Shown piece by piece: positions 83 to 48,423 of a DNA stretch of 64,000 bases (its first letter is position 1; every line of letters starts with the position of its first letter). The translations under genes and the position numbers were made by a program. Below the pieces are notes generated by a model. The model was not told the DNA's origin, did not search any database, and worked only from the letters and a program-made list of their open reading frames with translations. The stretch is from Hellea sp. (GTDB lineage: Bacteria; Pseudomonadota; Alphaproteobacteria; Caulobacterales; Maricaulaceae): contig JAHDEZ010000003.1 in the NCBI GenBank assembly GCA_020628425.1, positions 25,996-89,995 of the forward strand, written 5' to 3'.

Positions 83-1591
83 TTATGCTCGGCAATAACG
101 ATCTATAAATGCCTGATGTGTCGGCATTGTTTCGAGGCACTTTTTCCAGGTAAGGCGTAAGTCATCCATGCGCCGTTCAAGTTCCGCGTCTGGCATCATA
201 TAGGCATTAGGATGGATGCGTTTTGGGTAAATCCCTTGACCATGCATAACCGCGAACCAGCTGGTTTCACCGAATAATTCATTATCATGTCGATATAAGC
301 GAGCATTTTCCTGATAAATTTCAAACCGCTGTGACAGACTGTCTGGAATATCCATATATTTGCAATATTTCCAAAATTCGGTGTCCTCTCTCTCAGTTGC
401 CTTGTAGTGCAAAATCAAAAAATCTCTAACCTGTTCAAACTCAGCAGCGGTGCGTTGATTAAAATAGTCTATGTCCGACTGATTAAAAAGTTTGTCGGGA
501 AAATTTGTCATCAGTCGCGCTATGGCAGTTTGAATAAGATGGATTGATGTTGACTCCAATGGTTCCATAAAGCCAGCGGACAGGCCGATCGCTAGTACAT
601 TCTTATTCCAGGTTTTCCTACGAATACCCGTTGTAAATTTTAAGGCGCGAGGGCTACCTAAGGGGGCACTATCCAACCCGTCTAGTAAAGTTTCGGTAGC
701 TTTCTGGTCTGATGTGAAGTCTTTAGAGTAAACGTGCCCGTTTCCGGTTCGGTTTTGTAAAGGAATACGCCATTGCCAGCCAGCAGCTTTAGCTGTGGAT
801 TTCGTATAAGGAATAGGGTCGGCGATTTTTTCACTGGCAACTGTGACGGCACTGTTGCATGGCAAATAATTTGACCAATCATCATATCCCGATTTTAGGG
901 TTTGTTCGATCAAGAGACCATAAAAGCCTGTGCAATCAATGAAAAACTCACCATTGACCAAATCGCCATTTTCCATAACGAGTTGTTCTACAAATCCAGT
1001 TTCCGAATTTTGCTTTACTTCCGTTACCCGTCCCTCTCGTCGCTTGACGCCACGACTTTCTGCAAAGGAGCGCATGAAGCGAGCATAAAGGGTCGCGTCA
1101 AAATGAAAGGCATACTCGATTTTTGACAATGGAGAGTTTCGAATGGATTTGTCGGGTCTTTGGAAACGACCTTCTCTTGCAGCCATAATTTGCAGGTTGT
1201 AATCATCTATGTGGTATGGGTGGCCCATTTCCTTGTGCCGTAAATAGAAATGATGAAACCGCATGCCTTCCATGTGCAGTCCATATTCACCAAATGGGTG
1301 AATATAGGCCTTTCCGATTTTATCCCAGTTCACGAATTCGATGCCGAGCTTAAACGTTGCATTGGTTTTTCGAACGAAATCGTCTTCATTGAGCCCAAGT
1401 AAATCATTAAAATACCGGATGTGCGGTATAGTGGCTTCGCCGACTCCTACAGTTCCAATAGCTTCCGACTCGATGAGTTCGATTTGTATATCCGGGTGAA
1501 CTAGGACCCGAGCGCAGGCTGCTGCCGTCATCCATCCGGCAGTTCCGCCGCCGACAATCACGATTTTTTTAATGTTATGTTCTGAGAGCAT
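83..1591 (-). CDS. Flavin-dependent halogenase-like protein (tryptophan halogenase family), paralogue A
   Basis: 502-aa ORF. It has the Rossmann motif VGGGTAGW, the conserved Lys context ATFKLGIEF, the WxWxIP motif GWQWRIPL and GFMEPLESTSI, all typical of the flavin-dependent Trp-halogenase family. Only 4 nt separate it from the upstream paralogue. Confidence 0.85.
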   Translation of the reverse strand: MLSEHNIKKIVIVGGGTAGWMTAAACARVLVHPDIQIELIESEAIGTVGVGEATIPHIRYFNDLLGLNEDDFVRKTNATFKLGIEFVNWDKIGKAYIHPFGEYGLHMEGMRFHHFYLRHKEMGHPYHIDDYNLQIMAAREGRFQRPDKSIRNSPLSKIEYAFHFDATLYARFMRSFAESRGVKRREGRVTEVKQNSETGFVEQLVMENGDLVNGEFFIDCTGFYGLLIEQTLKSGYDDWSNYLPCNSAVTVASEKIADPIPYTKSTAKAAGWQWRIPLQNRTGNGHVYSKDFTSDQKATETLLDGLDSAPLGSPRALKFTTGIRRKTWNKNVLAIGLSAGFMEPLESTSIHLIQTAIARLMTNFPDKLFNQSDIDYFNQRTAAEFEQVRDFLILHYKATEREDTEFWKYCKYMDIPDSLSQRFEIYQENARLYRHDNELFGETSWFAVMHGQGIYPKRIHPNAYMMPDAELERRMDDLRLTWKKCLETMPTHQAFIDRYCRA

Positions 1592-1595
1592 TTGT

Positions 1596-3110
1596 TTAGT
1601 TTGCCTTGCAGTATTTATTAATGAAGTCAGCGTGAGTTGGCATTTGCGGCACGGCTTTACTCATAGCGTTACGCATAGATGTCAAACTCCGGTCGACCGA
1701 GCTGATGGGTAAGTTCGATACGATTGGGTCGACAGATTTAGGATGAATGTTTTGACCAAAAAGGACGGCCGTCCAACTATTTTTGGAGAACAACTCGTCT
1801 TCATATCTGAAAATCCGTCCAGCTGCCTTAAATAGTTCGAGCTTATGTTTCAGGCTATCTGGTATTTCCATGTTCTTGCAATATGTCCAAAACGGCGTAT
1901 CGTCGCGTTCAGTTGCACAGTAATGAAGAATGATGAAATCGCGGACCTGCGCAAAGAGTAGCTGCATCTGTCTATTATATTCGTCACGAATGACCGGAGA
2001 ATTAGACCCGTCCGGAAATAATGATATAAATTTGCTGATACCCATTTGAATGAGATAGATCGACGTTGATTCAAGCGGTTCCAAAAAGCCAGCAGAAAGC
2101 CCAATGGATATGCAATTTTTTTCCCAGAATGATTGTTGGCAACCGGTTTTGAAGCGCAACTGTTTGGGCGTTCCCAAGGCCGGCCCATCAAGATCCTCTA
2201 GGAGAGAATCATGGGCGTCGCTATCTGAAAGAAACTCACTGGAATAGATATGGCCATTGCCCGTTCGTTTTTGGGTTGGAATTCTCCACTGCCAGCCGGC
2301 TGATTTTGCTGTTGCAATTGTGTAGGGTCGCGAGGGCCCTTGCGCTTCACAAGCTACGGCCTGAGCCGAGTCGCAAGGGAGCCAGTGGGTCCAGTCTGTA
2401 AATCCTACGCCCAGTGTTTTTGACAATAAAAGAGAACGAAAGCCTGTACAGTCAAAGAAAAACTCTCCCGAAATTGCTTTACCGTTTTCAAGTATCAGGT
2501 CGGTGATATTTCCAGTTTCTGTGGCCTGATGTACCGTTTCGACGCGACCCTCAACGCGCTTGACTCCCCGCTTTTCAGAATAGTTCCTGAGATATTGCGC
2601 ATATAGTGTTGCGTCGAAATGATAGGCATAGCTTATCTGGGACATGACAGAGCGCGGATCCTGTACCGGTAATGTGAACTTATTCTGATAAGCACTTCGT
2701 GCGCACAGACTGTAATCGTGATATCGGTGTTCTTGCCCGGATTGTTTAAGGCGTAGCCAGTATTGATGGAAGTCTATGCCTTGCATGTCGGCCCCATGGC
2801 CGCCAAAAGGATGGAAGTAACTGTCACCCAGTTTTCCCCAATTGTTAAACTCAATGCCAAGTTTGAAAGTTGCATTGGTGGCTCTCATAAACTCATCTTC
2901 CGGGATACCCAGAATGCGATTGAAGTTAATGATATCCGGAATCGTCGCTTCGCCAACGCCTACGGTTCCGATCTGCTCTGATTCTACCAAGGTGATTTCC
3001 ACATCATCCGGGTGAAGGAGAGATGACAATGCGGCTGCTGTCATCCATCCCGCGGACCCGCCGCCTAAGATCACAATAGACCGAATGTTGTTTGCTTGGT
3101 TAGGCCCCAT
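1596..3110 (-). CDS. Flavin-dependent halogenase-like protein (tryptophan halogenase family), paralogue B
   Basis: Motifs LGGGSAGW, ATFKLGIEF, GWQWRIPT and GFLEPLESTSI. The ORF track starts at a GTG at 3155. I prefer the ATG at 3110 (MGPNQANNIRSIVILGGG), which gives an N-terminus of paralogue-like length and only an 11-nt overlap with the upstream gene. Confidence 0.8.
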   Translation of the reverse strand: MGPNQANNIRSIVILGGGSAGWMTAAALSSLLHPDDVEITLVESEQIGTVGVGEATIPDIINFNRILGIPEDEFMRATNATFKLGIEFNNWGKLGDSYFHPFGGHGADMQGIDFHQYWLRLKQSGQEHRYHDYSLCARSAYQNKFTLPVQDPRSVMSQISYAYHFDATLYAQYLRNYSEKRGVKRVEGRVETVHQATETGNITDLILENGKAISGEFFFDCTGFRSLLLSKTLGVGFTDWTHWLPCDSAQAVACEAQGPSRPYTIATAKSAGWQWRIPTQKRTGNGHIYSSEFLSDSDAHDSLLEDLDGPALGTPKQLRFKTGCQQSFWEKNCISIGLSAGFLEPLESTSIYLIQMGISKFISLFPDGSNSPVIRDEYNRQMQLLFAQVRDFIILHYCATERDDTPFWTYCKNMEIPDSLKHKLELFKAAGRIFRYEDELFSKNSWTAVLFGQNIHPKSVDPIVSNLPISSVDRSLTSMRNAMSKAVPQMPTHADFINKYCKAN

Positions 3111-4518
3111 GTTTGTTATCCAGATAAGCTTTGAACTTACTGATATATCTATCACCGGGAGGCATTTTTTGCACCATGGTTTCGATATTTGTTTTAAGTG
3201 TCAAAAGCATCTTCTTTATATCATCGTCTGAAATTTGATTAAGGAACACGTCCTGTCTTTGTGGGCGTCGTCCCAGACCGAAATGTTGAATGGCCCAATC
3301 TTCTATTGTGAAGGGCTCAAGATCATATTGTGTCAGATAACCCCGGCTTTCGAATTGCTTTATTTTACGAGCGAGTTTTTCCGGGCACGGTGATGTAAGA
3401 ACGGCTTCCCAGTAGGGACACTCTGGAATAGGCTCAATTTCGAAAAGGTTTCTAGTGAATAGGGCGCAATGATTGCGGTCATCTTCAAACAGTCGATTGT
3501 ATTCACGCGCCTCTACACTCATATCCGTTGTTACAGGGAATAAAGATAAGAGCCTTTCAATATCCCGCTGTAAAAGGATCATTGGAGCCGGGGTTAGGGG
3601 CTCCATTACACATGCGGAATGTCCAATAGCTACCGTGTTCCTATTCCAGGCCTTTTCCAAATGCCCGGTTTCTATATAAAAATCAGGGTCTTTTATATAT
3701 TGAGGTAAGCCAACGGACAAATGGATTTGTTCTTCTTGCAAGCGAACTGTAGATTGCCATCCCATAGCGGCGGCTTTTATGTGTTTAAGTGTAAAGCCCG
3801 GTGTAACCGGCACATGATTGGCCTTAACAGCTAATCGAATTTCAGCATCAAATTCAGCATCAAGAGATGATGAGAGTTGTCGCTGTGTACCAGAGCAATC
3901 GATAAAGAAATCAGCCTCTAAGATTTCTCCTTCGGAGGTTGTTATAGACTTAACTTGGTCTGACTTGGATTGAATAGATTGGACAGTTCCTTTTGAGCGC
4001 CTGAGCTTCGAAGCGGACTTTAGGAGGCTCGAAATCTCGTCCGGCATAAAAACATAACCATATTCTGCCCTAGAAAGTGGGTTGTCTTTTTCCTGCGGAG
4101 GATGGGCAAAGCGCCCGTTCAGCCCCGCAGAACTGCTAATTAAAAATGGGGCCAACGGTGCTCCAACACACGCCGCATAATGGTGAAAAAGCACATTGTT
4201 CCAAACAGGAAAAGGTTGTTGATAGCCCTGAACCCAATTTAGTCGCCCGGCCCAACCTTCAAAAGCTGTTCCATAGGCAAAATTTGTTTGAGTACCTCGA
4301 AGTAATGTTGGCTCATCAAGACCGATTTGGACCAAAAAATTATAGGCCGTCGGTGCTGTAACGTGGCCGTAGAAATCATCGGTATTCTTATCGCGGTCCA
4401 ACTCCATGGCTATAATCGTAATTTTTTCGGGGAGGGCGTTGCGCAAGGCTGCGAGTGTCAGCTCGAAAGCCAGTCCAGAACCACAGACCAATACAGATTT
4501 TACGTCGGTTCCTGTCAT
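3100..4518 (-). CDS. Degenerate halogenase-family paralogue (probable pseudo-enzyme)
   Basis: 472-aa ORF that is colinear with its three neighbours but has eroded motifs. GxGxxG reads CGSGLAF, the catalytic-Lys context reads TNFAYGTAFEGW (Lys replaced by Ala), and WxWxIP reads GWQSTVRL. Its start overlaps the stop of the upstream gene (ATGA at 4515-4518). Confidence 0.75.
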   Translation of the reverse strand: MTGTDVKSVLVCGSGLAFELTLAALRNALPEKITIIAMELDRDKNTDDFYGHVTAPTAYNFLVQIGLDEPTLLRGTQTNFAYGTAFEGWAGRLNWVQGYQQPFPVWNNVLFHHYAACVGAPLAPFLISSSAGLNGRFAHPPQEKDNPLSRAEYGYVFMPDEISSLLKSASKLRRSKGTVQSIQSKSDQVKSITTSEGEILEADFFIDCSGTQRQLSSSLDAEFDAEIRLAVKANHVPVTPGFTLKHIKAAAMGWQSTVRLQEEQIHLSVGLPQYIKDPDFYIETGHLEKAWNRNTVAIGHSACVMEPLTPAPMILLQRDIERLLSLFPVTTDMSVEAREYNRLFEDDRNHCALFTRNLFEIEPIPECPYWEAVLTSPCPEKLARKIKQFESRGYLTQYDLEPFTIEDWAIQHFGLGRRPQRQDVFLNQISDDDIKKMLLTLKTNIETMVQKMPPGDRYISKFKAYLDNKHGA

Positions 4519-6029
4519 CGCTGAGCGCTCGCTGGGATTGCGGCTCCAAACTCAGCAATAAAGCTCTGATGATTTTTCGTGTTTTCAGCGGCAGTCATTA
4601 CTTCCGCGCGCATATCTAAAAGGGTTTTGGCAAGCTCGGTTTCAGACATTTTATCCACGCGGCAGTCATATCTTGCTGGTAGGAGTCTTTGTCCCACCAT
4701 AACTGCTACCCAGCTCGGTGGGAGGAATGCGCCAAACTCATATTTGATGATATGACCACGCGTCTCCCAGGTATTAATTTTTTCGGTCAAGGATTCAGGT
4801 AGCTCCATGTTGCGGAAATATTTCCACATGGGACTGTCATCTCGTTCCGTCGCTACATAGTGCAATAACAGAAAATCTCTTACCCTTTCGAAATAGAGAT
4901 CCATTTTTGCATTATATTCATCAGCGTCAGTCTGTTGGAACGACTTATCCGGGAACAGCTCTAGTAATGCTGTAATGCCTTCTTGAATGAGGTATATGGA
5001 TGTTGACTCCAAGGGTTCTAAAAAGCCGGCGGACAATCCAATAGCAATCACATTTTTATTCCAAAGTTTTCGACGCTTTCCGGTTAGAAAGTAAAGTTGA
5101 TTGGGTTCTGCCAAAGCTTCACCGTCCAGATTTTGAATTAATTCATGCCTGGCTTCGTCATCAGAGATATATTCATTGCAATATACAATTCCATTACCGG
5201 TTCTATGTTGTAATGGAATGTGCCATTGCCATCCAGCTTTGCGGGCCGTAGCACGCGTAAATGGCATGAGTGGTCCGGATGAACGGGTTGGAATGGCGAT
5301 TGCCCGGTTGCAAGGTAACCATCCGCTCCAGTCATCATATCCAGATTTCAGCGCTTGTTCGATCAATATCCCCCGAAATCCGGAACAATCGATGAACAAT
5401 TCTGCTGAAATAACGTCGCCGGCTTCGGTTGTAAGTGAGCTGATATGGCCACTTTCAGGGGCGAATTCTACATTCGTAACTTTGCCTTCAATGCGCATTA
5501 CACCTTTACCTTCGGCGAAAGTTCTGAGGAATTTCGCATAAAGACTGCTGTCAAATTGATAAGCATAGCCAAATGTGGACTCTATTTTGGAATGGTCTTC
5601 GTCCGGCATGCGAAAACGCCCCATTTCTGACGCGATAATTGGATACGAATATGTGTCGAGACGGGTGTCGTCGCCTTGAAGTCTCTGGCGATTCCAGAAG
5701 TGATAAAAAGGGATACCGTTGATAGGTTTGCCGTAATCCCCAAACGGATGAATATATCTGTCGCCGATTTTGCCCCAATCACAAAACTCGATGCCCATTT
5801 TAAAAGTGGCTTTGGTGGCGCGCATGAACTCTGCTTCATCGAAACCCAATGAATTATTGAAATAACGGATGTGGGGCAGGGTAGCTTCTCCTACTCCAAC
5901 AGTCCCAATTTGTTCAGACTCAATGAGGACGATTTCCATATCGCTAGGGGTAAATTTTTGCGCGAGCGCTGCCGCCGTCATCCAGCCCGCCGTGCCACCT
6001 CCTAATATACAAATTTTCTTGAGTTTCAT
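4515..6029 (-). CDS. Flavin-dependent halogenase-like protein (tryptophan halogenase family), paralogue D
   Basis: 504-aa ORF with LGGGTAGW, ATFKMGIEF, GWQWHIPL and GFLEPLESTSI. It is the first gene of the four-gene tandem. Confidence 0.85.
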   Translation of the reverse strand: MKLKKICILGGGTAGWMTAAALAQKFTPSDMEIVLIESEQIGTVGVGEATLPHIRYFNNSLGFDEAEFMRATKATFKMGIEFCDWGKIGDRYIHPFGDYGKPINGIPFYHFWNRQRLQGDDTRLDTYSYPIIASEMGRFRMPDEDHSKIESTFGYAYQFDSSLYAKFLRTFAEGKGVMRIEGKVTNVEFAPESGHISSLTTEAGDVISAELFIDCSGFRGILIEQALKSGYDDWSGWLPCNRAIAIPTRSSGPLMPFTRATARKAGWQWHIPLQHRTGNGIVYCNEYISDDEARHELIQNLDGEALAEPNQLYFLTGKRRKLWNKNVIAIGLSAGFLEPLESTSIYLIQEGITALLELFPDKSFQQTDADEYNAKMDLYFERVRDFLLLHYVATERDDSPMWKYFRNMELPESLTEKINTWETRGHIIKYEFGAFLPPSWVAVMVGQRLLPARYDCRVDKMSETELAKTLLDMRAEVMTAAENTKNHQSFIAEFGAAIPASAQR

Positions 6030-13612: not shown

Positions 13613-15451
13613 ATGTCAGAGATTCCCTCAATACGAAGATTGCCGGCGGAAACGATCAATCGCATTGCGGCTGGTGAAGTTGTCGAACGTCCCGCAAGTG
13701 TGATCAAGGAATTGGCTGAAAATTCTATTGATGCCAACGCCCGACAGATAGATATTCGTTTCGAGGATGGAGGGCGGACTTATATATCCGTTACTGATGA
13801 CGGGAAGGGCATGTCAGCGGAAGAACTGCCTATCGCCATTGAACGTCATGCCACTTCAAAATTAAGGCCAAATGATGAAGGGGAATGGGATCTTTTAAAC
13901 ATCGGAACCATGGGGTTCCGCGGAGAGGCCTTGCCGTCTATTGGCTCAGTCGCACGTTTATCTATCACCTCACAGACAGCCAATGACGATTCCGCATGGC
14001 AAATTCTAATAGAAGGTGGTGATATTAAACCCATTAAGCCCGCCCCCAGGTTTGGATTATCCGGGACAAAAGTTGAAGTGAACGATTTGTTCTACGCCAC
14101 GCCGGCCCGTTTAAAATTTCTGAAATCCGAACGCAGTGAAAGTCTAGCTATCTCAGATACGGTTAAGCGATTAGCTATGGCTAACCCGACGATAGGCTTT
14201 ACGTTAGGTACGTCCGCGCGCATGAGTTTTCGAGTTACGCCGCAAGAAAATTCGGATGAAGGCCATCTCAACAGGTTAGCGGCGGTTCTCGGCCGAGAAT
14301 TTGGAGACAATGCTTTGGCCATTGACGCCGAGCGTGAAGGCATTCGCCTAAGTGGATTTACCGGCTTGCCAACCTATTCAAGGGGTAACAGCCTTCATCA
14401 ATATTTGTTTGTGAATGGTCGTCCGGTCAAAGATCGGCTTTTACACGGAGCTATCAAAGGGGCCTATCAGGACTTTCTCGCCCGAAACCGTTATCCGGTA
14501 GCGGCTCTATTCGTCGATATGCCAATGACCCATGTCGATGTAAACGTTCATCCAGCCAAAACCGAGGTTAGATTTCGCGATCCCAATCTTGTGAGAGGGC
14601 TCATAGTGTCCGCTATTCGACATGCTTTAGCTGGCGCGGGTCACAGAGCCAGTACAACAGTTTCAGATTATGCCCTAGGAAAAATCCAGTCCGGTACCAG
14701 CACCCTGCCACTACAAGGGAATTATTCATCTCGCCCCCCCCTATATCGTCCGCAGCTCCAATCAGACCATAGACCAGATCCGAGTTACCAACCTCTGGTC
14801 GATGGGTTTTCGGCTAAAGTTGAAGAAACTCAATCTCATTATACTTCTGAGACGTCACAGAATATGGTGTCAAATCCGCTCGGCGCAGCGCGAGCACAAG
14901 TTCATGAAACCTATATTGTGGCGCAAACATCCGACGGTATCGTCATTGTTGATCAGCATGCGGCCCATGAAAGACTTGTCTATGAACGCATGAAAGACGC
15001 TATGGCTGGTCAGGGCGTTGAACGGCAGACTTTGCTTATTCCTGATATTGTCGAACTTGGAGAGGCGGACGCTGCCCGGGTGTTATCACGTCAAGATGAA
15101 TTAGCTGAAATGGGGCTATTGATTGAACCTTTCGGCAATGGGGCCATTGCAGTCAGGGAAACGCCGGCAATACTGGGTGAAATGAATGTAAAAGGGCTTT
15201 TACAAGACCTAGCAGATGATTTGAGTGCCTATGACGAGACCTTATCGTTGAAAGAACGATTCGAAGATGTTTGTGGAACCATGGCTTGTCACGGTTCTGT
15301 TCGGGCCGGGAGGCGGTTAAATGCGACAGAAATGAACGCTTTACTGCGAGATATGGAGGCAACCCCCCATAGCGGACAGTGTAATCATGGTCGCCCAACC
15401 TATGTAGAGCTCAAATTAGCCGATATTGAACGCCTATTCGGCCGCAGGTAG
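13613..15451 (+). CDS. mutL: DNA mismatch repair endonuclease MutL
   Basis: GHKL ATPase N-terminus ([27 protein letters not shown]). The C-terminus carries the endonuclease motifs [12 protein letters not shown] and CNHGRPT. Confidence 0.95.
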
Positions 15452-15484
15452 TTGAATAATAAAGTATGCCACAATTTTATTATG

Positions 15485-15502
15485 GTTAATTTTAAAATTA
15501 AC
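15485..15502. promoter_or_regulatory. Perfect 18-nt AT-only palindrome (candidate operator)
   Basis: gttaattttaaaattaac equals its own reverse complement. It lies in the AT-rich spacer after mutL and upstream of the micro-ORF. Confidence 0.3.
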
Positions 15503-15675
15503 AGTTGTAAAGAAAGTGTAAATTCTCTTTCTAGGGTAAAAATGCGCATGAAATCAGTTATTTAATTGATTTATCGTGGGAATTTCATGGTTAATGAATT
15601 GACAACAATGCCGTATTTCATAAACATCTGGACGGGGTGATATTGCCCGAATTTATCCTTTTATGGAGTTGTTCA

Positions 15676-15741
15676 ATGCGTGAACTCACAATGGATGAAG
15701 TAGAAGTAGTTACTGGTGGAATGCCACCTATCACAGAATAA
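15676..15741 (+). CDS. 21-aa peptide with a double-glycine (ColV/bacteriocin/pheromone-type) leader: MRELTMDEVEVVTGG|MPPITE
   Basis: ATG at 15676 is preceded by GGAG (15665-15668) at 7-nt spacing, and the stop is TAA 15739-15741. Residues 1-15 match the double-glycine leader consensus at positions -12 (L), -8 (E), -7 (V), -4 (V), -2 and -1 (GG). A strong terminator follows 8 nt later. The ORF is too short for the ORF track. Confidence 0.5.
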   Translation: MRELTMDEVEVVTGGMPPITE

Positions 15742-15748
15742 CGAATTA

Positions 15749-15777
15749 GCAGCCCGTTTTAACGGGCTGTTTTTTTA
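15749..15777 (+). terminator. Rho-independent terminator after the micro-ORF
   Basis: Stem agcccgtt (15751-15758), loop tt, stem aacgggct (15761-15768), then gttttttt. Confidence 0.75.
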
Positions 15778-15812
15778 ACCAAATCCTTGGACTTAACCAC
15801 TAACAAGTCCAT

Positions 15813-17969
15813 ATGATTCTCTTTCGCGCATTGAAGATTTTTGTACTCATCACTCTTTGTACGTGGAATGAAGCGGACGCGCAGGATGTTAAGGGCTTAA
15901 AAGAACTCGCGCAACATGCCATAGATGCTCATTTTTTCCAGTCTTCTGGTGGAACGAAAACAACTCTTGAAACTGAATTGGATAAACACATTTCCCAATA
16001 TAATTGGCAGGAAATTGACCGAATATTATCTGAAACGGATGGTACGAAGTTTCGTGAGGTTTACAGCAAGACTGGTGCTTTCTTGGCCAAGGAGGTTGAC
16101 AATGTTGAGATGGATTCTCGGCTTTGGTTGGAGAGATGTGTCGACGGTCCTGACAAAGAAATGTCACATAAATGTGCTATTTCTTTGTCGTCCATATCTG
16201 TCTTGGAGAACAATCATATTGCTGCTTTAGACTGGGCCTATCGTGCAAATAAAATTACTGAGGAATTTCCAAATACGCATCCTCGATATTGGTATATGCA
16301 GTATCAAAATAATGCCTTCCTTTTGATTGCCTTTATATATGACGGAAACATTGAAGAGGCCTCAGATTCAGGCAAACGTTATGTTGATGCAGCTCTTAAA
16401 GCCGAAGTGCATTTAGAATCCTTTTTTCTCATCAATAACATTTCGTACCTTGCGCGAAATGAAATTGGACCAGAGGCCGCTCTTGATATTTTGCGGGTTG
16501 CCGAAGCAAATGTAGATGAAATTTCGAAGGAAAATCAGGAAGTCCTTTATTATGCACTGGCAAAAAATTACTCTGCGAATGATCAAAACCTAATTGCGTT
16601 GAGATACTATGAAAAATTTGACTCTGTTAAGTCCAGGGGAGATTTGGAGCGCGCTGCATTAGCAAATCTTGCGCTAATTTTCTCAGAGCTTGAAAGATGG
16701 GACGAGTCTAAAGATGCTTTGAAAAGGGCTAAACCATTATTCGAGGGAGATTTAAATTCAGCTCACGGTATGAACATGTTGTTGGCAGAAAAAAATATCG
16801 CAATCTCAGAAAATCGATTGATGGATGCTTTGGATATCGACGCCAATATAGACAAAATAGATGATCTTTTGGAGGAAAGAGCTATTTCTTCCAACAGGAA
16901 TCGGCTCTCGAAGAATCTTCAAATCGTAGGAGAGCGCCAAAAAAGAGAAACCGACCGTCTCTCCTATGAGGCTCAACTGAGTGAGCAAGAGGCCGCCGCC
17001 AGCCGTCGACAATTCCTGCTAACACTCATTGCACTCTTTTTTGTTCTAGTGTTGGCATCTTGGGTTTACCGAAGCTACCTACGGGAGCAAAAACTTAACA
17101 AAGTTATCAAAGTCAAGAATGATGAGTTGGAAGAATCGAATCAACAATTAGAAGGTGCCAATGACCGATTACAGCGTACCTTTGATGATTTGAAGGTTGC
17201 CCACAAACAGGCCCTTGCTGGGCAAGAAGCCAAAGAGAAATTTATCGGCGTGATAGGTCATGAACTGCGTACGCCACTCAATCCTATTATTAATCTTGCT
17301 GGCGTGCTTGAGGATAAAACAGAAAATCTAAGAGACAGAGCCTTGCTGAAGGCTATCAAGAATGCGGGGAAACGTTTGCATATTATCGTTGAAAATATGC
17401 TCGCAATCTCGGCCAATGATGAGTCGACCAAAGTATATGTCGAGCCCATGGATGTCGTGGAAAACACCACGACAATATTACGTGAGTTTAAGTCAGAAAT
17501 CCAAAGCAAAGTGACGGAGCTTAGGCGAACCGGCGAGAACCTAAAGGTCAATATTTTGAAGGACTCGAATCTTGATGAAAAATATTTCAATAACAAGGTT
17601 ATTTACCGAACCATTGTCAGAAATTTGTTTGACAATGCTTTGAAATTTACCCGAGACGGTGAAATCGCTATCGAGCTCCGACGTAGAAAAAACGGTAATG
17701 GTTTTGTGTTCATTATTCGTGACACTGGAGCAGGGATGGAGCCCAAGAAAATCGATGAATTGGTTGAGCCGTTTCAGCAGGCGGAAATGGACTTAGGACG
17801 CGCTTACGAGGGCGCGGGCCTCGGATTAGCTGTGGTGCAAAAATACTGCGAACAATTGGGTGCCAAATTAGAAATAGATAGCAAAGTCAATATAGGGACG
17901 ACGATAACCATAGATTTTCCGGAGCCTCCTTATCAGCCCGAAACCGGACGATTAATGAAGGTTGCCTAG
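15813..17969 (+). CDS. Orphan sensor histidine kinase with a large periplasmic TPR-like domain
   Basis: The signal/TM1 segment is MILFRALKIFVLITLCTWNEADA. A helical repeat-like periplasmic region of about 370 aa follows, then TM2 (LLTLIALFFVLVLASWVY) and a coiled coil. The kinase core has HisKA H-box IGHELRTPLN, N-box FDNALKFT, G1 IRDTGAGM and G2 GAGLGLAV. There is no receiver domain and no adjacent response regulator. Confidence 0.85.
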   Translation: MILFRALKIFVLITLCTWNEADAQDVKGLKELAQHAIDAHFFQSSGGTKTTLETELDKHISQYNWQEIDRILSETDGTKFREVYSKTGAFLAKEVDNVEMDSRLWLERCVDGPDKEMSHKCAISLSSISVLENNHIAALDWAYRANKITEEFPNTHPRYWYMQYQNNAFLLIAFIYDGNIEEASDSGKRYVDAALKAEVHLESFFLINNISYLARNEIGPEAALDILRVAEANVDEISKENQEVLYYALAKNYSANDQNLIALRYYEKFDSVKSRGDLERAALANLALIFSELERWDESKDALKRAKPLFEGDLNSAHGMNMLLAEKNIAISENRLMDALDIDANIDKIDDLLEERAISSNRNRLSKNLQIVGERQKRETDRLSYEAQLSEQEAAASRRQFLLTLIALFFVLVLASWVYRSYLREQKLNKVIKVKNDELEESNQQLEGANDRLQRTFDDLKVAHKQALAGQEAKEKFIGVIGHELRTPLNPIINLAGVLEDKTENLRDRALLKAIKNAGKRLHIIVENMLAISANDESTKVYVEPMDVVENTTTILREFKSEIQSKVTELRRTGENLKVNILKDSNLDEKYFNNKVIYRTIVRNLFDNALKFTRDGEIAIELRRRKNGNGFVFIIRDTGAGMEPKKIDELVEPFQQAEMDLGRAYEGAGLGLAVVQKYCEQLGAKLEIDSKVNIGTTITIDFPEPPYQPETGRLMKVA

Positions 17970-17970
17970 A

Positions 17971-18537
17971 TCAGCTATCCTTAAGACGCATAAACAGAAC
18001 TTTTGCGGCGCCCCAGACTCGTTCATCCATAACTTCGTAATCGGTTATCTCGGCTATTTCATCACTGGATATTTCCAGAATGATCAAGCTCGACCTATCT
18101 ATCAAGTTTAACTCTGACAGTTTTCGTAAAACAGGTTGCCAAAGGTTTTTATTGTAGGGCGGATCCATAAAAATATGGGAGAAGGTTCCCCGCAGATTAC
18201 CTGGTGCAATTCTCAGTTTTGTTGCATCTTGACGGTGAAGACGGGTGCATCCAAAAAGTCCCATATCTTCTATGTTTTTCCGGATTGCCGCCCGCGCTTT
18301 GGGCTCTGTTTCGACAAATAAACAAAACTCCGCCCCCCGGGAAATTGCTTCAAGACCCAGTGCCCCCGAACCGGCAAAGATATCCGCGACTATGGCCCCC
18401 TCTAAATCAGGTGACCAATCTGCATGAGAGAGAATATTGAACAAAGACTCTCTGGTTTGGTCGCTAGTGGGGCGTGTATTGCGCCCTGAAGGGGTCTCGA
18501 TGTTTCGCCCACGGAGACGACCTGATACAATTCTCAT
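17971..18537 (-). CDS. rsmD: 16S rRNA (guanine966-N2)-methyltransferase RsmD
   Basis: 188 aa. N-terminus MRIVSGRLRGRNIETP, SAM motif FAGSGALGLEAISRGA, and catalytic DPPY. Confidence 0.85.
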   Translation of the reverse strand: MRIVSGRLRGRNIETPSGRNTRPTSDQTRESLFNILSHADWSPDLEGAIVADIFAGSGALGLEAISRGAEFCLFVETEPKARAAIRKNIEDMGLFGCTRLHRQDATKLRIAPGNLRGTFSHIFMDPPYNKNLWQPVLRKLSELNLIDRSSLIILEISSDEIAEITDYEVMDERVWGAAKVLFMRLKDS

Positions 18538-32780: not shown

Positions 32781-33674
32781 ATGTTGAGAAAGAAATTTAT
32801 AATTCTTATGACACTTGGCGTCGCGTTCGGCTTGGCTTCTACTGCTCATACGCAATCATTGCCGGGTGGGTATGACGAATTTCCAAATCCAGACGATCCA
32901 AAAAAGGGCAAAGAGTTTGAGACGGAATTTCAAAAAACTATCGATGATTTTGTTTCCATTTGCAGTGAGGTCTATATGGATGAGATGACCCAGAGCGATT
33001 GGCACATGGATGAACATGAGACGCTGGGAGAATTGGGTTATCGAAAGTCTGGTCAAGTTTATGAGAAGCGTGAGGATTTGTTTGACTCTCACGAATATAA
33101 AAGCGTGATTTATGTCAACCGGAATTTCGCCGGACTTCCAATATCTTTCAAATTAAAAGAAGACAAGTCGACCGATGACGTCAATCTTCCTCATACTGGC
33201 TGGGCTTGTGCTTTCAAATTTTCCTGGGAAGAAAACGTTGAAAATCTCTGGTTATCCCAATCCTATTTGGGGTCAGGGATTTTTGCTAGTCTCGGGAATA
33301 CAGTTCGGTCAGCGCTTCAAGAACGAAATGCTCCTTACATTGGACGCATCAATAGTATTTTAGATGTACAAACTTCCCATTGTTGGGAGAATTGTCCGTC
33401 CGATAGAAGTGTGGTCGTCAGCTTCTCTGCGACCCAGGAAGAAATAAGTGAGTGGCGCAGCTATAATGACATCCCGAACGGTCTAATTTTCACGCTACGT
33501 GCAGACGGAACGTTGGTTCTCCCTGATGGTAAGGTTCTGGGACGTATAACTCAAAGCGCCGAAATTGTTAACCTTGCCGGGGCGAAGATCGGTCACATCG
33601 ATTTAGGCGATGGGTATGTTTACGATCAAAACGGAAATAACATAGGCTGGACGAACCTTATTTTAAACCGCTGA
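32781..33674 (+). CDS. Secreted protein of unknown function with a C-terminal Gly-rich 'LRADG...GxVxGR...NxAGxxIG' module
   Basis: Signal peptide MLRKKFIILMTLGVAFGLASTAHTQS. I recognise no family for the body. The last ~70 aa share an ungapped 17/36 identity block with the C-terminus of the giant repeat protein at 56236. Confidence 0.6.
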   Translation: MLRKKFIILMTLGVAFGLASTAHTQSLPGGYDEFPNPDDPKKGKEFETEFQKTIDDFVSICSEVYMDEMTQSDWHMDEHETLGELGYRKSGQVYEKREDLFDSHEYKSVIYVNRNFAGLPISFKLKEDKSTDDVNLPHTGWACAFKFSWEENVENLWLSQSYLGSGIFASLGNTVRSALQERNAPYIGRINSILDVQTSHCWENCPSDRSVVVSFSATQEEISEWRSYNDIPNGLIFTLRADGTLVLPDGKVLGRITQSAEIVNLAGAKIGHIDLGDGYVYDQNGNNIGWTNLILNR

Positions 33675-45762: not shown

Positions 45763-47076
45763 TTAAAATGGAAACTTATTACGGCTTGTCAGGCGCTGTT
45801 TGTGGTCAGGGCTTTTGACCAGACGAATGGCTTGCTGTAATTGATAATCCTCATCATCAGGATGACTGTCTGGTGGGAATAGCATTTCGGAGAAGTTCTC
45901 CTCTACATCGGTTTCAGCGTTACCAAGAGCGTTCTGCAAGTCTGACTCACGAAAACGGCGTCGTGTTTCTTCGCTATCGGGCGTTTGTGATACCAAGACA
46001 TCAGGCATTATGCCCAGTCCCTGAATAGAGCGGCCTGAAGGCGTGTAGTAGCGTTCTGTAGTTAAGCGCAGAGCGCCTTCATTGCCAATTTGAAGAATGG
46101 ATTGCACAGATCCTTTCCCGAAAGACCGACGACCTACAACTAGAGCTCGATTTCTGTCCTGTAACGCACCTGCAATGATTTCTGATGCTGACGCTGATTG
46201 GCTGTTAATCATCACAACAAGTGGTACACTTGGTAAAAGCTCTCCGGCTTCTGCATGGTATCTTCGCGTCATATCTGCCGTACGTCCTCGAGATGAAAAA
46301 ACTTCACCCCCGTCTAGGAAATAGCCCGTAACATTGACGACTTGGTCAACTCGGCCGCCACCATTGCTGCGAACATCAATGATTAAGCCGGGTAGGGTTC
46401 CGCCTGCTTCAGACTTCAAATCTTCAACGGCCGCTTCCACATCTTCGGTGAGACGAGGATGATTAAAGGACTCAATATAGATATATCCAACACCTTCTTC
46501 AATTCTGTGTCGGACGGCGCGACCATAAATGATTTCACGAATAACAGTGACGTCCCGAGAGGTGTTATCGGGAGATAATACTGTGACAGTAATGGGATCG
46601 CCAGCCAAACCTCGCATGCCTTCTACTGCATCATCTAATGATTTCCCCAAGACCTTTTCGCCTTCGACGGCAGTTATGTAGTCACCCCTTTTGATACCCG
46701 CCTTATCAGCAGGACCGCCTGGCAAAGCGTAATTTACAAGTACAAGTCCGGCCTCTGCAGTTATTTCTATCCCCAGTCCGCCATATTCTCTTCGGGCGCT
46801 TTTTTGGCGTTCGGAGTGTTCTTCCTGAGGGACATAACTTGAATGCGGATCAAGTGATTCAAGCGCCCCGTTTAAGGCGCCCTCAATCAAGTCCTCGTCG
46901 GCTGTATCTTCAACGTAGTTGTCTCTGACTACTGAAAACACTTCGGCGAAAAGCTCGAGCTGTCTGATCATTTCTACATCTTCGGCTTTTTGATTGTCCT
47001 GCGCTAACACCGGATGAGAAAAACTCATCAAAGAAATGATGAGTATAATAAAAAAAGCGCGCAATTTTAGATGCAT
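45763..47076 (-). CDS. ctpA: S41 carboxy-terminal processing peptidase (CtpA paralogue 2)
   Basis: Signal peptide, PDZ domain (GGLGIEITAE...GGPADKAGIKRGDYI), catalytic Ser context NSQSASASEIIAGAL and Lys context SFGKGSVQ. Confidence 0.9.
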   Translation of the reverse strand: MHLKLRAFFIILIISLMSFSHPVLAQDNQKAEDVEMIRQLELFAEVFSVVRDNYVEDTADEDLIEGALNGALESLDPHSSYVPQEEHSERQKSARREYGGLGIEITAEAGLVLVNYALPGGPADKAGIKRGDYITAVEGEKVLGKSLDDAVEGMRGLAGDPITVTVLSPDNTSRDVTVIREIIYGRAVRHRIEEGVGYIYIESFNHPRLTEDVEAAVEDLKSEAGGTLPGLIIDVRSNGGGRVDQVVNVTGYFLDGGEVFSSRGRTADMTRRYHAEAGELLPSVPLVVMINSQSASASEIIAGALQDRNRALVVGRRSFGKGSVQSILQIGNEGALRLTTERYYTPSGRSIQGLGIMPDVLVSQTPDSEETRRRFRESDLQNALGNAETDVEENFSEMLFPPDSHPDDEDYQLQQAIRLVKSPDHKQRLTSRNKFPF

Positions 47077-47112
47077 GGATCCTGTGTCTTCCAGTCAGAT
47101 AAGATGGCGATG

Positions 47113-48423
47113 TTATTCCTGACTCGCCTGGGCTAGCTTCGTGCTGTAGCTACCATCCTTTAAAATTTCAATAGCCCGCTTAAGCTGATAATCGTCTTTT
47201 TCATCAAAGCCTGCAGGTGGGTATTCAATTTGGATTTCCACTTCATCTGAGTCGGAGTCCAACTCGTTTTGAATGGAATTTGGTAAGTCAGACTCTGACA
47301 TACGGTTGTTGGTTTCTTCCTCAGACGTCGCGGCAATCGCAATGTCTGGCGTGATACCTGTGGCCTGAATGGAGCGACCTGCTGGTGTATAATAACGCTG
47401 TGTTGTAAGGCGCAGGGCGCCGTCACGACCGCCTCTCAATGGAATAACGGCCTGAACCGACCCTTTCCCGAATGATGTCATTCCGACAACGAGACCTCTA
47501 TCGCGGTCTTGGACAGCGCCGGCTACAATTTCAGAGGCTGAAGCTGAAGCACTATCGATGAGCACGACCAAAGGGACGTCTTTAAGTAACTGTCCTTTTT
47601 CAGCTGAGTAACTGTTGACGTCTTTGGCCTGCCGCCCTCGAGTGGAAACCACTTCACCGCCATCAAGAAACGCACTGCTGACTTTGACAGACTGGTCAAG
47701 TAAACCGCCCGGGTTGCCACGCAGATCTAATACGACTCCAGGAATATTGCCGCCGAATTCTTTTTTCATAGCTGAAACAGCATCTTTCAACGTATCTGTT
47801 GTTTTTTCGTTGAACTGAGGAATTCGGAGATATCCGACACCATCTTTTATCTCCCACTTTGTTGCTCGGGATTTAATAACGGCGCGAACCAAGTCAAATT
47901 CCATGGGATCGTTATCACCACGAATGATAGTGATTGTAATCGGCTCACCTGGTTTACCGCGCATACGTTCAACCGCTTCGTCCAAAGAAACGCCGATTAT
48001 GTTTTCACCGTCAATTTCTGTGATATAATCTCCGGCTTTGATGCCGGCGTCCTTGGCGGGACTGTCATCAATAGGGGCAACAACTTTGACGACTCCAGAT
48101 TGAGACGTCACTTCCATCCCAAGTCCACCATATTCGCCAGCAGTTGTTGTCTGCATGCGTTTCCATTGTTCCGGGTTGATGTAACTGGAGTGCGGATCCA
48201 GTGACTGCAGCATGCCATTCATAGCGCCTTCGATGAGTTCACTATCTTCGACATCGATAACATATTCACCACGTACACGCGCCATAACATCAGCAAACAA
48301 CTCAAGCTGACGGAATGTGTCAGTCCGAGATGTGTCTTTGGCATTGGCCGTATGTGAGACGCTGGAAAAAGCAAAAAGAGCTGTTGCAGTCACTGCGCCT
48401 AATGTGGGTAGAATATATTTCAT
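47113..48423 (-). CDS. ctpA: S41 carboxy-terminal processing peptidase (CtpA paralogue 1)
   Basis: Signal peptide, PDZ domain (GGLGMEVTSQ...DSPAKDAGIKAGDYI), catalytic DSASASASEIVAGAV and SFGKGSVQ. It is colinear with the adjacent paralogue. Confidence 0.9.
   Translation of the reverse strand: MKYILPTLGAVTATALFAFSSVSHTANAKDTSRTDTFRQLELFADVMARVRGEYVIDVEDSELIEGAMNGMLQSLDPHSSYINPEQWKRMQTTTAGEYGGLGMEVTSQSGVVKVVAPIDDSPAKDAGIKAGDYITEIDGENIIGVSLDEAVERMRGKPGEPITITIIRGDNDPMEFDLVRAVIKSRATKWEIKDGVGYLRIPQFNEKTTDTLKDAVSAMKKEFGGNIPGVVLDLRGNPGGLLDQSVKVSSAFLDGGEVVSTRGRQAKDVNSYSAEKGQLLKDVPLVVLIDSASASASEIVAGAVQDRDRGLVVGMTSFGKGSVQAVIPLRGGRDGALRLTTQRYYTPAGRSIQATGITPDIAIAATSEEETNNRMSESDLPNSIQNELDSDSDEVEIQIEYPPAGFDEKDDYQLKRAIEILKDGSYSTKLAQASQE

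Follow-up and report, generated by a model that had tools for sequence, protein, structure and literature searches.

A short double-glycine-leader peptide gene in front of a rare sensor kinase with a predicted pheromone-receptor-like outer domain points to peptide signalling in Hellea-like marine alphaproteobacteria

The DNA analysed here, hereafter the window, is a stretch of 64,000 nucleotides from Hellea sp. It carries an unannotated open reading frame of 21 codons that is followed by an intrinsic terminator and by the gene of a membrane sensor kinase. The micro-ORF starts with ATG at 15676, ends with TAA at 15739-15741 and translates as MRELTMDEVEVVTGGMPPITE, i.e. a leader MRELTMDEVEVVTGG followed by the hexapeptide MPPITE. 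The features of the locus are the following.

15482..15489 (-), distal TTAACCAT box, identical to the CtrA half-site sequence
15587..15605 (+), conserved promoter box ATGGTTAATGAATTGACAA, holding the proximal TTAACCAT on the minus strand (15587-15594) and a -35-like TTGACA (15599-15604)
15633..15649 (+), small hairpin (CGGG ... CCCG) in the 5' untranslated region
15665..15668 (+), Shine-Dalgarno GGAG, within the invariant block GGAGTTGTTCAATG
15676..15720 (+), double-glycine leader of 15 codons, MRELTMDEVEVVTGG
15721..15741 (+), core hexapeptide MPPITE, the predicted mature signal, plus the stop codon
15748..15778 (+), intrinsic terminator (stem 15748-15771, T-run)
15775..15782 (+), TTAACCAA box right after the T-run, one mismatch from TTAACCAT
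15789..15810 (+), hairpin ggactt...aagtcc abutting the kinase start codon
15813..17969 (+), sensor kinase gene, 718 aa
15813..15884 (+), kinase residues 1-24, signal-peptide-like hydrophobic segment ending in ADA|Q
15885..16892 (+), kinase residues 25-360, periplasmic TPR-like solenoid, the predicted peptide-binding sensor
16998..17081 (+), kinase residues 396-423, transmembrane helix continuous with a long stalk helix (336-421 in the model)
17229..17927 (+), cytoplasmic HisKA (residues 473-536) and HATPase_c (residues 598-705) domains, without a receiver domain

The original prediction, which described this micro-ORF with its ribosome-binding site, double-glycine leader and terminator in front of an orphan kinase, is confirmed by our re-examination. 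The GGAG motif lies 7 nt before the ATG. A terminator scan returned a single site with a stem of 10 pairs, 6 of them G-C, which starts 6-9 nt after the stop codon depending on which pairs are counted. The ggactt/aagtcc hairpin (15789-15794 / 15805-15810) is present in the minimum-free-energy fold and ends 2 nt before the kinase ATG at 15813, with no clear Shine-Dalgarno site in front of the kinase gene. This hairpin is not conserved in every locus: among the related loci, which we designate by L numbers, L001 and L002 have a different hairpin (GGCATT...AATGCC) that includes the kinase ATG. Hydropathy scans placed a signal-like segment at the N-terminus of the kinase, also found in most relatives, and one internal transmembrane segment, leaving about 370 residues outside the cytoplasm; cleavage of the signal-like segment is a prediction. 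Pfam scans of all substantial ORFs in the window found no C39-peptidase ABC transporter and no response regulator, as had been stated.

The leader motif is not a chance match. A degenerate leader pattern hits once in the window, against 0 expected from shuffles, and a relaxed double-glycine regular expression hits exactly once in all six frames of each of the ten loci scanned, the window included. A longer reading frame beginning at an in-frame GTG (15637) was rejected since the upstream frame is closed, or lacks a start codon, in relatives. No Rfam family reaches threshold in the region.

Conservation of the reading frame next to related kinases had been proposed beforehand as a test of the prediction, and the micro-ORF passes it. 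All 13 loci that could be read carry a homologous micro-ORF on the same strand, 70-96 nt upstream of the kinase gene. These loci represent 12 distinct kinases from Hellea-like Maricaulales, with sensor domains as little as 22-23% identical, and occupy three different genomic contexts. In the leader, variable sites by codon position are 1/1/6 in close relatives and 2/2/12 in the 10 micro-ORFs analysed, and replacements are conservative (D to E, V to I or L). The leader is therefore under purifying selection, and the possibility of a chance ORF was rejected on these statistics together with the pattern counts given above. The block surrounding the Shine-Dalgarno site is invariant in all close relatives and reads GGGGTGTTCAATG in L033 and L036.

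In contrast to the leader, the core is hypervariable in sequence but stays 5-8 residues long per unit. The cores homologous to MPPITE are NGVIRD, NGTIRD, GAGSILR, KTPIVQ, DGKVIL, SGAVIL, GTVVVL, SLKVEV, SIVVH, GRPVVLND and (RGVVLAE)x4-RGVVLKD. Ile or Val sits at core position 4 in most alleles, at position 5 in L003 and at position 3 in L036. The last allele of the list, carried by L038, is a 21-nt tandem repeat encoding five copies of a heptapeptide, of which the first four differ only synonymously, including cgc/aga for Arg. These observations designate the core as the functional unit.

The leader is of the double-glycine type. Such leaders end in a Gly-Gly (or GA/GS) cleavage motif after about 15-25 residues. 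Gly-Gly lies at residues 14-15 in all 13 homologues read, and L-12, E-8, V-7, V-4 and GG of the window peptide match the PCAT recognition consensus Leu(-12)-X3-Glu(-8)-Leu(-7)...GG, with a hydrophobic residue at -4 (PMC8277102). Leu at -7 is exact in L034 and only L038 departs, with T at this position. The same leader type (RELTxDEVExVxGG) precedes bacteriocin-like cores of 20-70 residues in other Proteobacteria, including Maricaulis and Brevundimonas, and in Brevundimonas HlyD and a Peptidase_C39-ABC transporter lie within 6 kb of such a peptide. Against curated profiles, for which these peptides are very short in terms of HMM statistics, the window peptide has no NCBIfam hit, while the L034 homologue scores 15.1 bits on TIGR01847 bacteriocin_sig (cutoff 15.7) and 18.0 on TIGR03949 (cutoff 21.5).

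A short ORF immediately followed by a terminator also recalls the leader peptides of amino-acid operons (trpL type), and the original prediction had offered, as an alternative, a translated leader or attenuator controlling read-through into the kinase gene. In this reading, translation of the ORF, for example ribosome pausing at Pro-Pro or at the stop codon, would control formation of the downstream terminator and so read-through, and the peptide itself would have no function in trans. The short distance to the kinase gene, the absence of an obvious separate promoter, the proximity of stop codon and stem in the window and weak sub-threshold Rfam hits to leader families spanning the terminator region (Trp_leader at E 0.94, for example) could be taken in its favour. 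However, this alternative is not supported and we consider it very unlikely. The residues nearest the stop codon are the hypervariable ones, Pro-Pro occurs only in the allele of the window and there is no regulatory codon run. A G+C-rich hairpin follows the stop codon in all ten loci folded, and in L036 and L038 by inspection, but its sequence varies, the stop-to-stem distance ranges from 6 to about 33 nt, and no alternative anti-terminator pairing is conserved in the alignment. In addition, the conserved part of the peptide fits an export-leader consensus shared with peptides carrying long cores, the five tandem core copies of L038 are kept under purifying selection, and the hypervariable segment described below joins the core to the periplasmic domain of the kinase.

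The extracytoplasmic part of the kinase was modelled separately, because a fold search with the full-length model returned only kinase cores, with ZraS, RetS and HK853 as top Foldseek matches. The AlphaFold2 model of the roughly 340-residue sensor domain is confident (mean pLDDT 90.8, pTM 0.86) and shows a predicted solenoid of 17 helices. Invariant residues of the sensor are W141, N179, N209 and Y247. Its top Foldseek matches in the PDB are RapJ-PhrC, phage phi3T Rap with 5-7-residue pheromones, RapF-PhrF and NprR; the eleven best matches include nine Rap or NprR chains, most of them bound to 5-7-residue pheromones, with TM-scores of 0.47-0.60. This similarity is at the fold level only (E 4e-5, rmsd 6-7 Å), and long TPR arrays tend to match each other. 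At the sequence level, a profile search of the PDB matched only generic TPR proteins (consensus TPR at E 3e-6) and no homology to Rap, NprR, PlcR, PrgX or Rgg receptors was detected, while several orthologues give sub-threshold Pfam TPR hits.

The peptide core and the sensor domain vary together as one sharply bounded, pherotype-like cassette. Between L033 and L036, nucleotide identity is 73-81% upstream and through the leader, 36-44% from the core to kinase codon ~456, and 71-79% again in most of the catalytic part. Between L004 and L007, identity is 43-56% in the sensor and 73-81% from codon ~391 to the end of the kinase gene. At the protein level, flanking genes are 71-87% identical and the cytoplasmic kinase part 57-89%, whereas the sensor is 32-49% identical, except for the one pair with near-identical cores, NGVIRD and NGTIRD, where it reaches 76%. 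Sensor domains of kinases nevertheless often evolve faster than catalytic cores, and over 8 alleles core similarity and sensor similarity are not significantly correlated (Mantel r 0.12, p 0.24); cores DGKVIL and SGAVIL, for instance, go with sensors only 41% identical. We therefore rely on the boundaries of the cassette rather than on pairwise correlation. The lack of a significant correlation, together with the variety of ligands bound by TPR domains and the presence of LGN/Pins and kinesin light chain among the fold matches, leaves some room for a sensor that binds something else, such as an algal or envelope-derived ligand or a partner protein, with the micro-ORF being linked for another reason, for example as a small regulator of kinase synthesis or stability. 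We regard this as unlikely, since linkage is strict across the three contexts and the hypervariable block starts exactly at the leader/core junction and ends at the membrane, which is hard to explain if the core and the sensor do not interact.

Our preferred explanation, held with moderate confidence, is that the micro-ORF and the kinase form a two-gene peptide-signalling module. In this view, a promoter carrying the conserved box would drive a short mRNA composed of a 5' hairpin, a strong Shine-Dalgarno site, 21 codons and a terminator. A C39-peptidase ABC exporter, inferred to be encoded elsewhere, would cut the propeptide after Gly-Gly and export MPPITE. At sufficient concentration, the peptide would enter the periplasm and bind the groove of the Rap/NprR-like TPR solenoid. 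The signal would then pass down the long stalk and transmembrane helix and change autophosphorylation of the HisKA/HATPase core, and so the phosphorylation of an unlinked, hypothetical response regulator. Kinase transcripts would probably arise by partial read-through of the peptide gene terminator, giving much peptide and little receptor, and the joint diversification of core and sensor as a replaceable cassette would produce mutually private pherotypes among related strains. The sequence analysis itself establishes that the gene is real with a leader under purifying selection, that this leader is of the double-glycine type, that its linkage to the kinase family is strict among the loci read, that the sensor lies outside the cytoplasm and is TPR-like as predicted by the model, and that the hypervariable cassette has sharp boundaries; expression, export, cleavage, binding and signalling are inferred from sequence and structure prediction alone.

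Besides the missing NCBIfam hit of the window peptide, the fold-level nature of the similarity to Rap/NprR, the lack of a significant correlation between cores and sensors and the often faster evolution of sensor domains, two further points weigh against this explanation: no PCAT exporter, HlyD-type adaptor or response regulator lies in the 64-kb window or in any related locus (up to 10 kb on each side), and a hexapeptide would be an unusually small PCAT cargo. The proposal of the original prediction that the peptide and the kinase form a pheromone/receptor pair is thus partly supported: the pairing survives, but the receptor is not of the ComD type that had been invoked, and export, secretion and binding remain inferences. 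Its attribution to alphaproteobacteria fits, a Hellea sp. genome (order Maricaulales) having the same locus, with MutL 85% identical.

Two further readings share part of this evidence. The peptide could be the precursor of an antimicrobial or modified (RiPP-type) product, with the kinase acting as a producer-side sensor for auto-induction or immunity, as NisK is for nisin. The occurrence of the same leader type in front of bacteriocin-like peptides of related orders, the weak HMM similarity to bacteriocin leader models and the hypervariable cores, which also suit antagonism, are compatible with this view. It appears unlikely, since an unmodified peptide of 5-8 residues is far below the size of known double-glycine bacteriocins, no modification enzyme, immunity gene or exporter lies next to it in any of the three contexts, and the cores lack Cys and show no conserved Ser/Thr pattern. 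Even so, the kinase would sense the peptide, and this reading overlaps the preferred one. Alternatively, the peptide could be released only into the producer's own periplasm, by an ABC exporter without an outer-membrane partner, and report on envelope confinement or exporter activity rather than on cell density, or act as a kin-recognition tag. The periplasmic location of the receptor domain and the absence of a linked HlyD/TolC partner agree with such a private loop, and the allele diversity fits kin discrimination as well as quorum sensing. A linear peptide of roughly 650 Da should however pass porins in both directions (an inference), and nothing in the sequence separates this reading from classical quorum sensing; we consider it improbable.

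The module can be compared with several known systems. As in the ComC-ComD(E), BlpC-BlpH and PlnA-PlnB systems of Gram-positive bacteria, a small gene for a double-glycine propeptide lies directly upstream of a membrane histidine kinase gene, the signal is predicted to be linear, unmodified and released after Gly-Gly, and signal and sensor are allelically diverse between conserved flanks. The peptide is however 5-8 residues long rather than about 17-27, and the receptor has one or two membrane passes, a large periplasmic TPR domain and a HisKA-type core, whereas ComD-type kinases (HPK10) have a polytopic membrane sensor of six to seven helices. Furthermore, no ComAB-type exporter and no LytTR regulator is linked, and the host has an outer membrane.

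The RRNPP systems (Rap-Phr, NprR-NprX, PlcR-PapR, AimR-AimP) of Firmicutes and their phages and plasmids also associate a short propeptide gene with an adjacent TPR receptor, and their mature signal is a linear peptide of 5-8 residues from the C-terminal end of the propeptide. Three of the five RRNPP criteria of PMC10075063 are fulfilled here, namely a small propeptide, a TPR receptor (an assignment resting on the sub-threshold Pfam hits, the profile match and the fold match) and adjacency. RRNPP receptors are cytosolic, 250-500 residues long and need peptide import, their propeptides use Sec or PptAB, and their outputs are DNA binding or phosphatase activity. Here, the TPR module is extracytoplasmic and part of a 718-residue histidine kinase, the propeptide has a double-glycine leader and no Sec signal, and the host is an alphaproteobacterium.

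The leader type is that of class II microcins and double-glycine bacteriocins of Proteobacteria (colicin V type), which rely on a CvaB-like PCAT, a HlyD-like adaptor and TolC and occur in Maricaulis, Brevundimonas, Pseudomonadales and Enterobacteriaceae. Their cores are often glycine-rich or hydrophobic and are not next to this kinase; the conserved partner here is a sensor kinase, not an exporter or an immunity gene. Finally, the agr locus of staphylococci shows a similar hypervariable segment (agrB-agrD-agrC) covering the signal peptide and the sensor half of the kinase between conserved flanks, but there is no homology, the agr signal being a thiolactone made by AgrB and its receptor polytopic.

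According to the textbook division, Proteobacteria signal with small molecules and Firmicutes with genetically encoded peptides (restated in PMC10075063), and the carriers here, Hellea-like marine alphaproteobacteria, are a group not known to use peptide-based cell-to-cell signalling. Double-glycine peptides were predicted in silico in Gram-negative bacteria long ago (Dirix et al. 2004), but a cognate receptor has been missing, and our literature searches for a described equivalent of the present locus found nothing. Here, a candidate signal and its candidate receptor sit side by side, the presumed ligand is short enough to be synthesised, the receptor domain is soluble and confidently modelled, and natural allele pairs supply built-in specificity controls, so that the question becomes directly testable. 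A TPR pheromone-receptor fold used outside the cytoplasm as a kinase input would also widen the known ways of sensing peptides. Hellea has been described among macroalgal surface microbiota, and such signals could therefore matter for how seaweed microbiomes assemble. The most far-reaching reading, possible but somewhat less likely than not, is a genuine peptide-pheromone quorum-sensing or kin-recognition system in Alphaproteobacteria, in which a PCAT-processed hexapeptide is read in the periplasm by an RRNPP-like TPR domain recruited as the input module of a histidine kinase, strain-specific pherotype cassettes are exchanged between conserved flanks, and the signal gene sits behind CtrA-type boxes, which would tie signalling to the dimorphic cell cycle. 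It would be the first receptor architecture of this kind and a Gram-negative counterpart of both ComCD and Rap-Phr.

The kinase family is rare. Two word-index searches returned the same seven proteins, and an exhaustive search found eight hits among 1.84 billion representative proteins. Carriers include GCA_013002305.1, GCA_020629545.1 and Hellea sp. MAG-118. A tblastn search with the sensor domain gave no hit among 72,556 plasmids. A scan of metagenome DNA returned only ordinary bacteriocin-like peptides and did not recover two JGI contigs already known, showing that this collection is not exhaustive. In the samples SRR14415273-5 and SRR22878281, short-read contigs break inside the leader. 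An apparently truncated kinase in the Hellea MAG (L014) proved to be an artefact of a masked N-run.

Upstream of the micro-ORF, the box ATGGTTAATGAATTGACAA is invariant in 5 of 5 aligned loci, occurs with one or two changes in L034 and L038, is unique in the window (0.01 matches expected) and lies 75-89 nt before the ATG in seven loci. The two TTAACCAT boxes are the only occurrences of this sequence in the 64-kb window and both lie upstream of the micro-ORF; a second copy is also present in L003. Their identity to the CtrA half-site (PMC3692519) is a match of sequence alone, and the full CtrA site TTAA-N7-TTAAC is absent from the window. A TTAAC motif directly follows the terminator in most loci, L034 having an exact TTAACCAT there, and may represent a second regulated site in front of the kinase gene, which is an inference. 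In the 5' untranslated region, a hairpin of 4-7 bp sits at the same place in 9 of 9 loci with different stem sequences (GTGAGC/GCTCAC, GGGTA/TACCC, GCGGA/TCCGC, GAGCA/TGCTC and TAGCAG-type), which constitutes covariation; a role in stabilising the mRNA 5' end is inferred.

The locus was found as in the original prediction, whose observation therefore holds. The relevant features of the window are as follows.

13613-15451, mutL.
15665-15668, the sequence GGAG preceding the micro-ORF.
15676 (ATG) to 15739-15741 (TAA), the micro-ORF, encoding MRELTMDEVEVVTGGMPPITE.
15748-15771, a G+C-rich hairpin of 10 pairs, followed by a T-run.
15789-15810, a second small hairpin, ending 2 nt before the kinase ATG.
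15813-17969, the gene for a histidine kinase of 718 residues.
17971-18537, rsmD, in convergent orientation.

The locus thus lies between mutL and rsmD, in ordinary chromosomal surroundings that include ATP synthase, pst, priA and obg. None of the substantial ORFs in the window is a C39-peptidase ABC transporter or a response regulator, and no Rfam family reaches threshold at this locus.

The N-terminal 440 residues of the kinase have only seven relatives among 5.8 billion clustered proteins and eight hits among 1.84 billion representatives searched exhaustively. DNA could be retrieved for 12 distinct kinases in 13 loci, designated below by L numbers, and every one of them carries a homologous micro-ORF 70-96 nt upstream of the kinase start and on the same strand. 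Nine loci share the mutL/rsmD context, whereas L033 with L036/L037, and L034/L035, lie in two other contexts. The pair therefore travels as a two-gene module. Hellea belongs to the Robiginitomaculaceae, order Maricaulales, class Alphaproteobacteria, and MutL of the window is 85% identical to that of the Hellea metagenome-assembled genome (MAG).

Table. Leaders and cores of the micro-ORFs upstream of the kinase (locus; leader; core).
window; MRELTMDEVEVVTGG; MPPITE
L001; MRELTTDEVEVVTGG; NGVIRD
L002 (contig starts inside the leader); as L001; NGTIRD
L003; as window; GAGSILR
L004/L005 (contig starts inside the leader); as window; KTPIVQ
L007 (contig starts inside the leader); as window; DGKVIL
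L006; MRELTTDEVEVVAGG; SGAVIL
L014 (Hellea sp. MAG-118); as window; GTVVVL
L033; MRELTTEEIEVVVGG; SLKVEV
L036/L037; as L033; SIVVH
L034/L035; MRELTMEELEVVSGG; GRPVVLND
L038; MRELTMDETKVVVGG; (RGVVLAE)x4-RGVVLKD

The pattern of substitutions indicates that the micro-ORF is translated as a protein and that the short core is the product. In the 13 leader codons shared by the 10 micro-ORFs analyzed, variable sites fall 2/2/12 on codon positions 1/2/3, and in the eight close relatives the split is 1/1/6. The few replacements are conservative (D to E, V to I or L, T to A, S or V). The core differs in almost every allele, yet the stop codon always comes 5-8 codons after Gly-Gly, and Ile or Val occupies core position 4 in most alleles, position 5 in L003 and position 3 in L036. 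In L038, a relative from assembly GCA_013002305.1, a precursor of 50 residues (positions 5772-5924 of that locus) carries a core made of a 21-nt tandem repeat (TRF: 4.2 copies, 91% matches), encoding RGVVLAE four times and then RGVVLKD. The first four copies differ only at synonymous sites, including cgc versus aga for Arg, and the heptapeptide unit itself is therefore under selection. An extra protease would be needed to release single units. Multi-copy cores are typical of precursors of small secreted peptides and make no sense for an attenuator ORF. In L006 (1551-1971), a metagenomic relative, the peptide gene is intact but the kinase gene has an in-frame TAA at about codon 46 of the sensor, which represents either a signal-blind variant or a sequencing error.

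The leader is of the double-glycine export type. It presents L-12, E-8, V-7, V-4 and GG, matching the Leu(-12)-X3-Glu(-8)-Leu(-7)...Gly-Gly signature recognized by C39 domains (PMC8277102). We scanned 596 Gb of species-representative genomes and the JGI metagenome set with a degenerate back-translation of ELTxDEVExVxGG and found the same leader in front of glycine-rich or hydrophobic bacteriocin-like cores of 20-70 residues, in hosts including Pseudomonadales, Enterobacteriaceae, Brevundimonas and Maricaulis. In Brevundimonas, HlyD and a Peptidase_C39 + ABC_membrane + ABC_tran protein lie 3-6 kb away. A Pseudomonadales MAG (L008) carries two tandem, nearly identical double-glycine peptides of 86 residues (1587-1847 and 2359-2619; leader MRELTADEVESVSGG) with identical upstream regions, which look like duplicated bacteriocin-like genes. 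The only hexapeptide-type hit of these scans was the Hellea locus. Curated HMMs are at or below threshold for such short sequences: the L034 peptide scores 15.1 bits on TIGR01847 against a cutoff of 15.7, and the window peptide is not reported. It remains possible, although unlikely, that the peptide is a bacteriocin or RiPP with a sensing kinase, but the core is tiny and no modification or immunity genes are linked to it. The attenuator proposed as an alternative in the original prediction is very unlikely, since it is contradicted by the hypervariable C-terminus, the variable spacing to the terminator, the repeated core of L038 and the match of the leader to an export consensus.

The kinase is predicted to sense outside the cytoplasm, with a TPR solenoid resembling those of Rap and NprR. 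All family members have a short N-terminal signal-like segment, ending ADA|Q in the window, and one transmembrane helix near residue 400-425. The domain between them was modeled with high confidence (residues 25-362, pLDDT 90.8, pTM 0.86, 17 helices in hairpins). The top Foldseek hits of this model against the PDB are peptide-pheromone receptors, ahead of other long TPR proteins such as LGN/Pins: RapJ with PhrC (4gyo, E 4e-5), phage phi3T Rap with SRGHTS, RRGHTAS or RGHTS, RapF with PhrF, and NprR with or without NprX, with TM-scores of 0.47-0.60 over about 300-350 columns. At the sequence level only generic TPR is detectable, as Pfam TPR hits below threshold and as consensus TPR at E 3e-6. 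We therefore claim fold resemblance and a peptide-sized groove, not homology to RRNPP proteins. The cytoplasmic part is a standard HisKA/HATPase core without a receiver domain.

The core and the sensor form one hypervariable cassette. Among the syntenic loci, the flanking proteins (MutL, RsmD, RluB, TadA) are 71-87% identical and the cytoplasmic part of the kinase 57-89%, whereas the sensor is only 32-49% identical, except for 76% between L001 and L002, the one pair with nearly identical cores. The boundaries are sharp. Between L033 and L036, nucleotide identity is 73-81% for 800 nt upstream and through the leader, drops to 36-44% from the core through the terminator, sensor and transmembrane segment (to about kinase codon 456) and then returns to 71-79% over most of the catalytic part, a comparison also made at the protein level. 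Between L004 and L007, it is 43-56% in the sensor and 73-81% from about codon 391 to the end of the kinase gene. This is the pattern of the agr and comCD pherotype loci. However, across eight alleles core similarity does not predict sensor similarity (Mantel r 0.12, p 0.24), and the evidence is therefore co-inheritance within one block rather than residue-level co-variation. A sensor with an unrelated ligand is hard to square with the cassette boundaries and appears improbable. Four independent short-read (Logan) contigs, L002 (1-64), L004 (1-61), L005 and L007 (1-61), begin 2-9 nt into the conserved leader, as would be expected if several alleles sharing the leader coexisted in a sample and broke the assembly graph. 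SRR14415273-5 yield two different alleles (KTPIVQ and DGKVIL) with kinase cores 89% identical.

Upstream of the micro-ORF lie, in order, an invariant box, ATGGTTAAYGAATTGACAA (15587-15605), unique in the window, a small hairpin present in 9 of 9 loci with covarying stems, and the invariant GGAGTTGTTCAATG. ATGGTTAA is the reverse complement of TTAACCAT, the CtrA half-site sequence (PMC3692519). Occurrences of this sequence in the window and its relatives are the following.

Window 15482-15489, distal copy of TTAACCAT.
Window 15587-15594, proximal copy.
Window 15775-15782, a near-copy, of TTAAC type, following the terminator.
Relatives: L001 181-188; L003 3651-3658 and 3706-3713; L006 1313-1320; L014 3624-3631; L034 1241-1248 and 1464-1471.

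The distal and proximal copies are the only two in the 64 kb and both lie upstream of the micro-ORF, the proximal one keeping its position, 75-89 nt before the ATG, in seven loci. This suggests CtrA-type (cell-cycle) control of the peptide gene in these dimorphic bacteria. All ten loci folded have a strong hairpin after the stop codon, as do L036 and L038 by inspection. The gap of 70-96 nt to the kinase gene leaves little room for a separate promoter and we infer terminator read-through, as in many peptide-precursor operons. Hairpins abut or include the kinase start codon (window 15789-15815; L001 about 385-411; L002 about 115-141) and no Shine-Dalgarno site is evident, suggesting that the kinase is translated poorly relative to the peptide, although this hairpin is not conserved in every locus.

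In the mechanism that we consider more likely than not, the propeptide would be cut after Gly-Gly and exported by a PCAT encoded elsewhere, the hexapeptide would reach the periplasm and bind the TPR groove of the adjacent kinase, and the kinase would change the phosphorylation of an unlinked regulator, with alleles defining private channels. The analysis itself establishes the conservation and coding selection of the gene, the type of its leader, the predicted extracytoplasmic TPR-like sensor, the hypervariable cassette and the layout of the transcription unit, whereas export, cleavage, binding and output are inferences. A private periplasmic or kin-tag loop, which we hold to be a doubtful alternative, cannot be told apart from quorum sensing by sequence.

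In this view, the system would work like ComC/ComD, where a double-glycine propeptide is encoded next to a kinase, and like Rap-Phr or NprR-NprX, where a TPR receptor is encoded next to a short propeptide with a C-terminal signal of 5-8 residues, but it is a member of neither. The polytopic sensor of ComD type and the LytTR partner are absent, and the pheromone interpretation of the original prediction is in this respect only partly supported. Likewise, the receptor is not an intracellular protein of 250-500 residues and the propeptide does not fit export by Sec/PptAB, as RRNPP systems require. Literature searches found no description of a double-glycine peptide paired with a TPR sensor kinase, or of peptide quorum sensing in these bacteria, and the combination is of high interest, within the limits set by a small family and by inference from sequence and predicted structure alone, without exporter evidence.

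Elsewhere in the window, four consecutive genes of the tryptophan-halogenase family (PF04820), the third being a weaker, partial match, occupy 83-6029 on the minus strand and form an unusual tandem array of flavin-dependent halogenases. Two tandem paralogous S41 (CtpA/CtpB-like) C-terminal processing peptidases with PDZ domains (45763-48423, minus strand) lie next to an M23 peptidase gene (48489-49703). An ORF of 2574 residues (56236-63960, minus strand) encodes a peptidoglycan-binding domain and DUF3659 / beta-flower-like C-terminal repeats, and part of it lies in the stretch of highest G+C in the window (0.54-0.56 over 56-60 kb). An ORF of 297 residues at 32781-33674 shares the DUF3659-like repeats.
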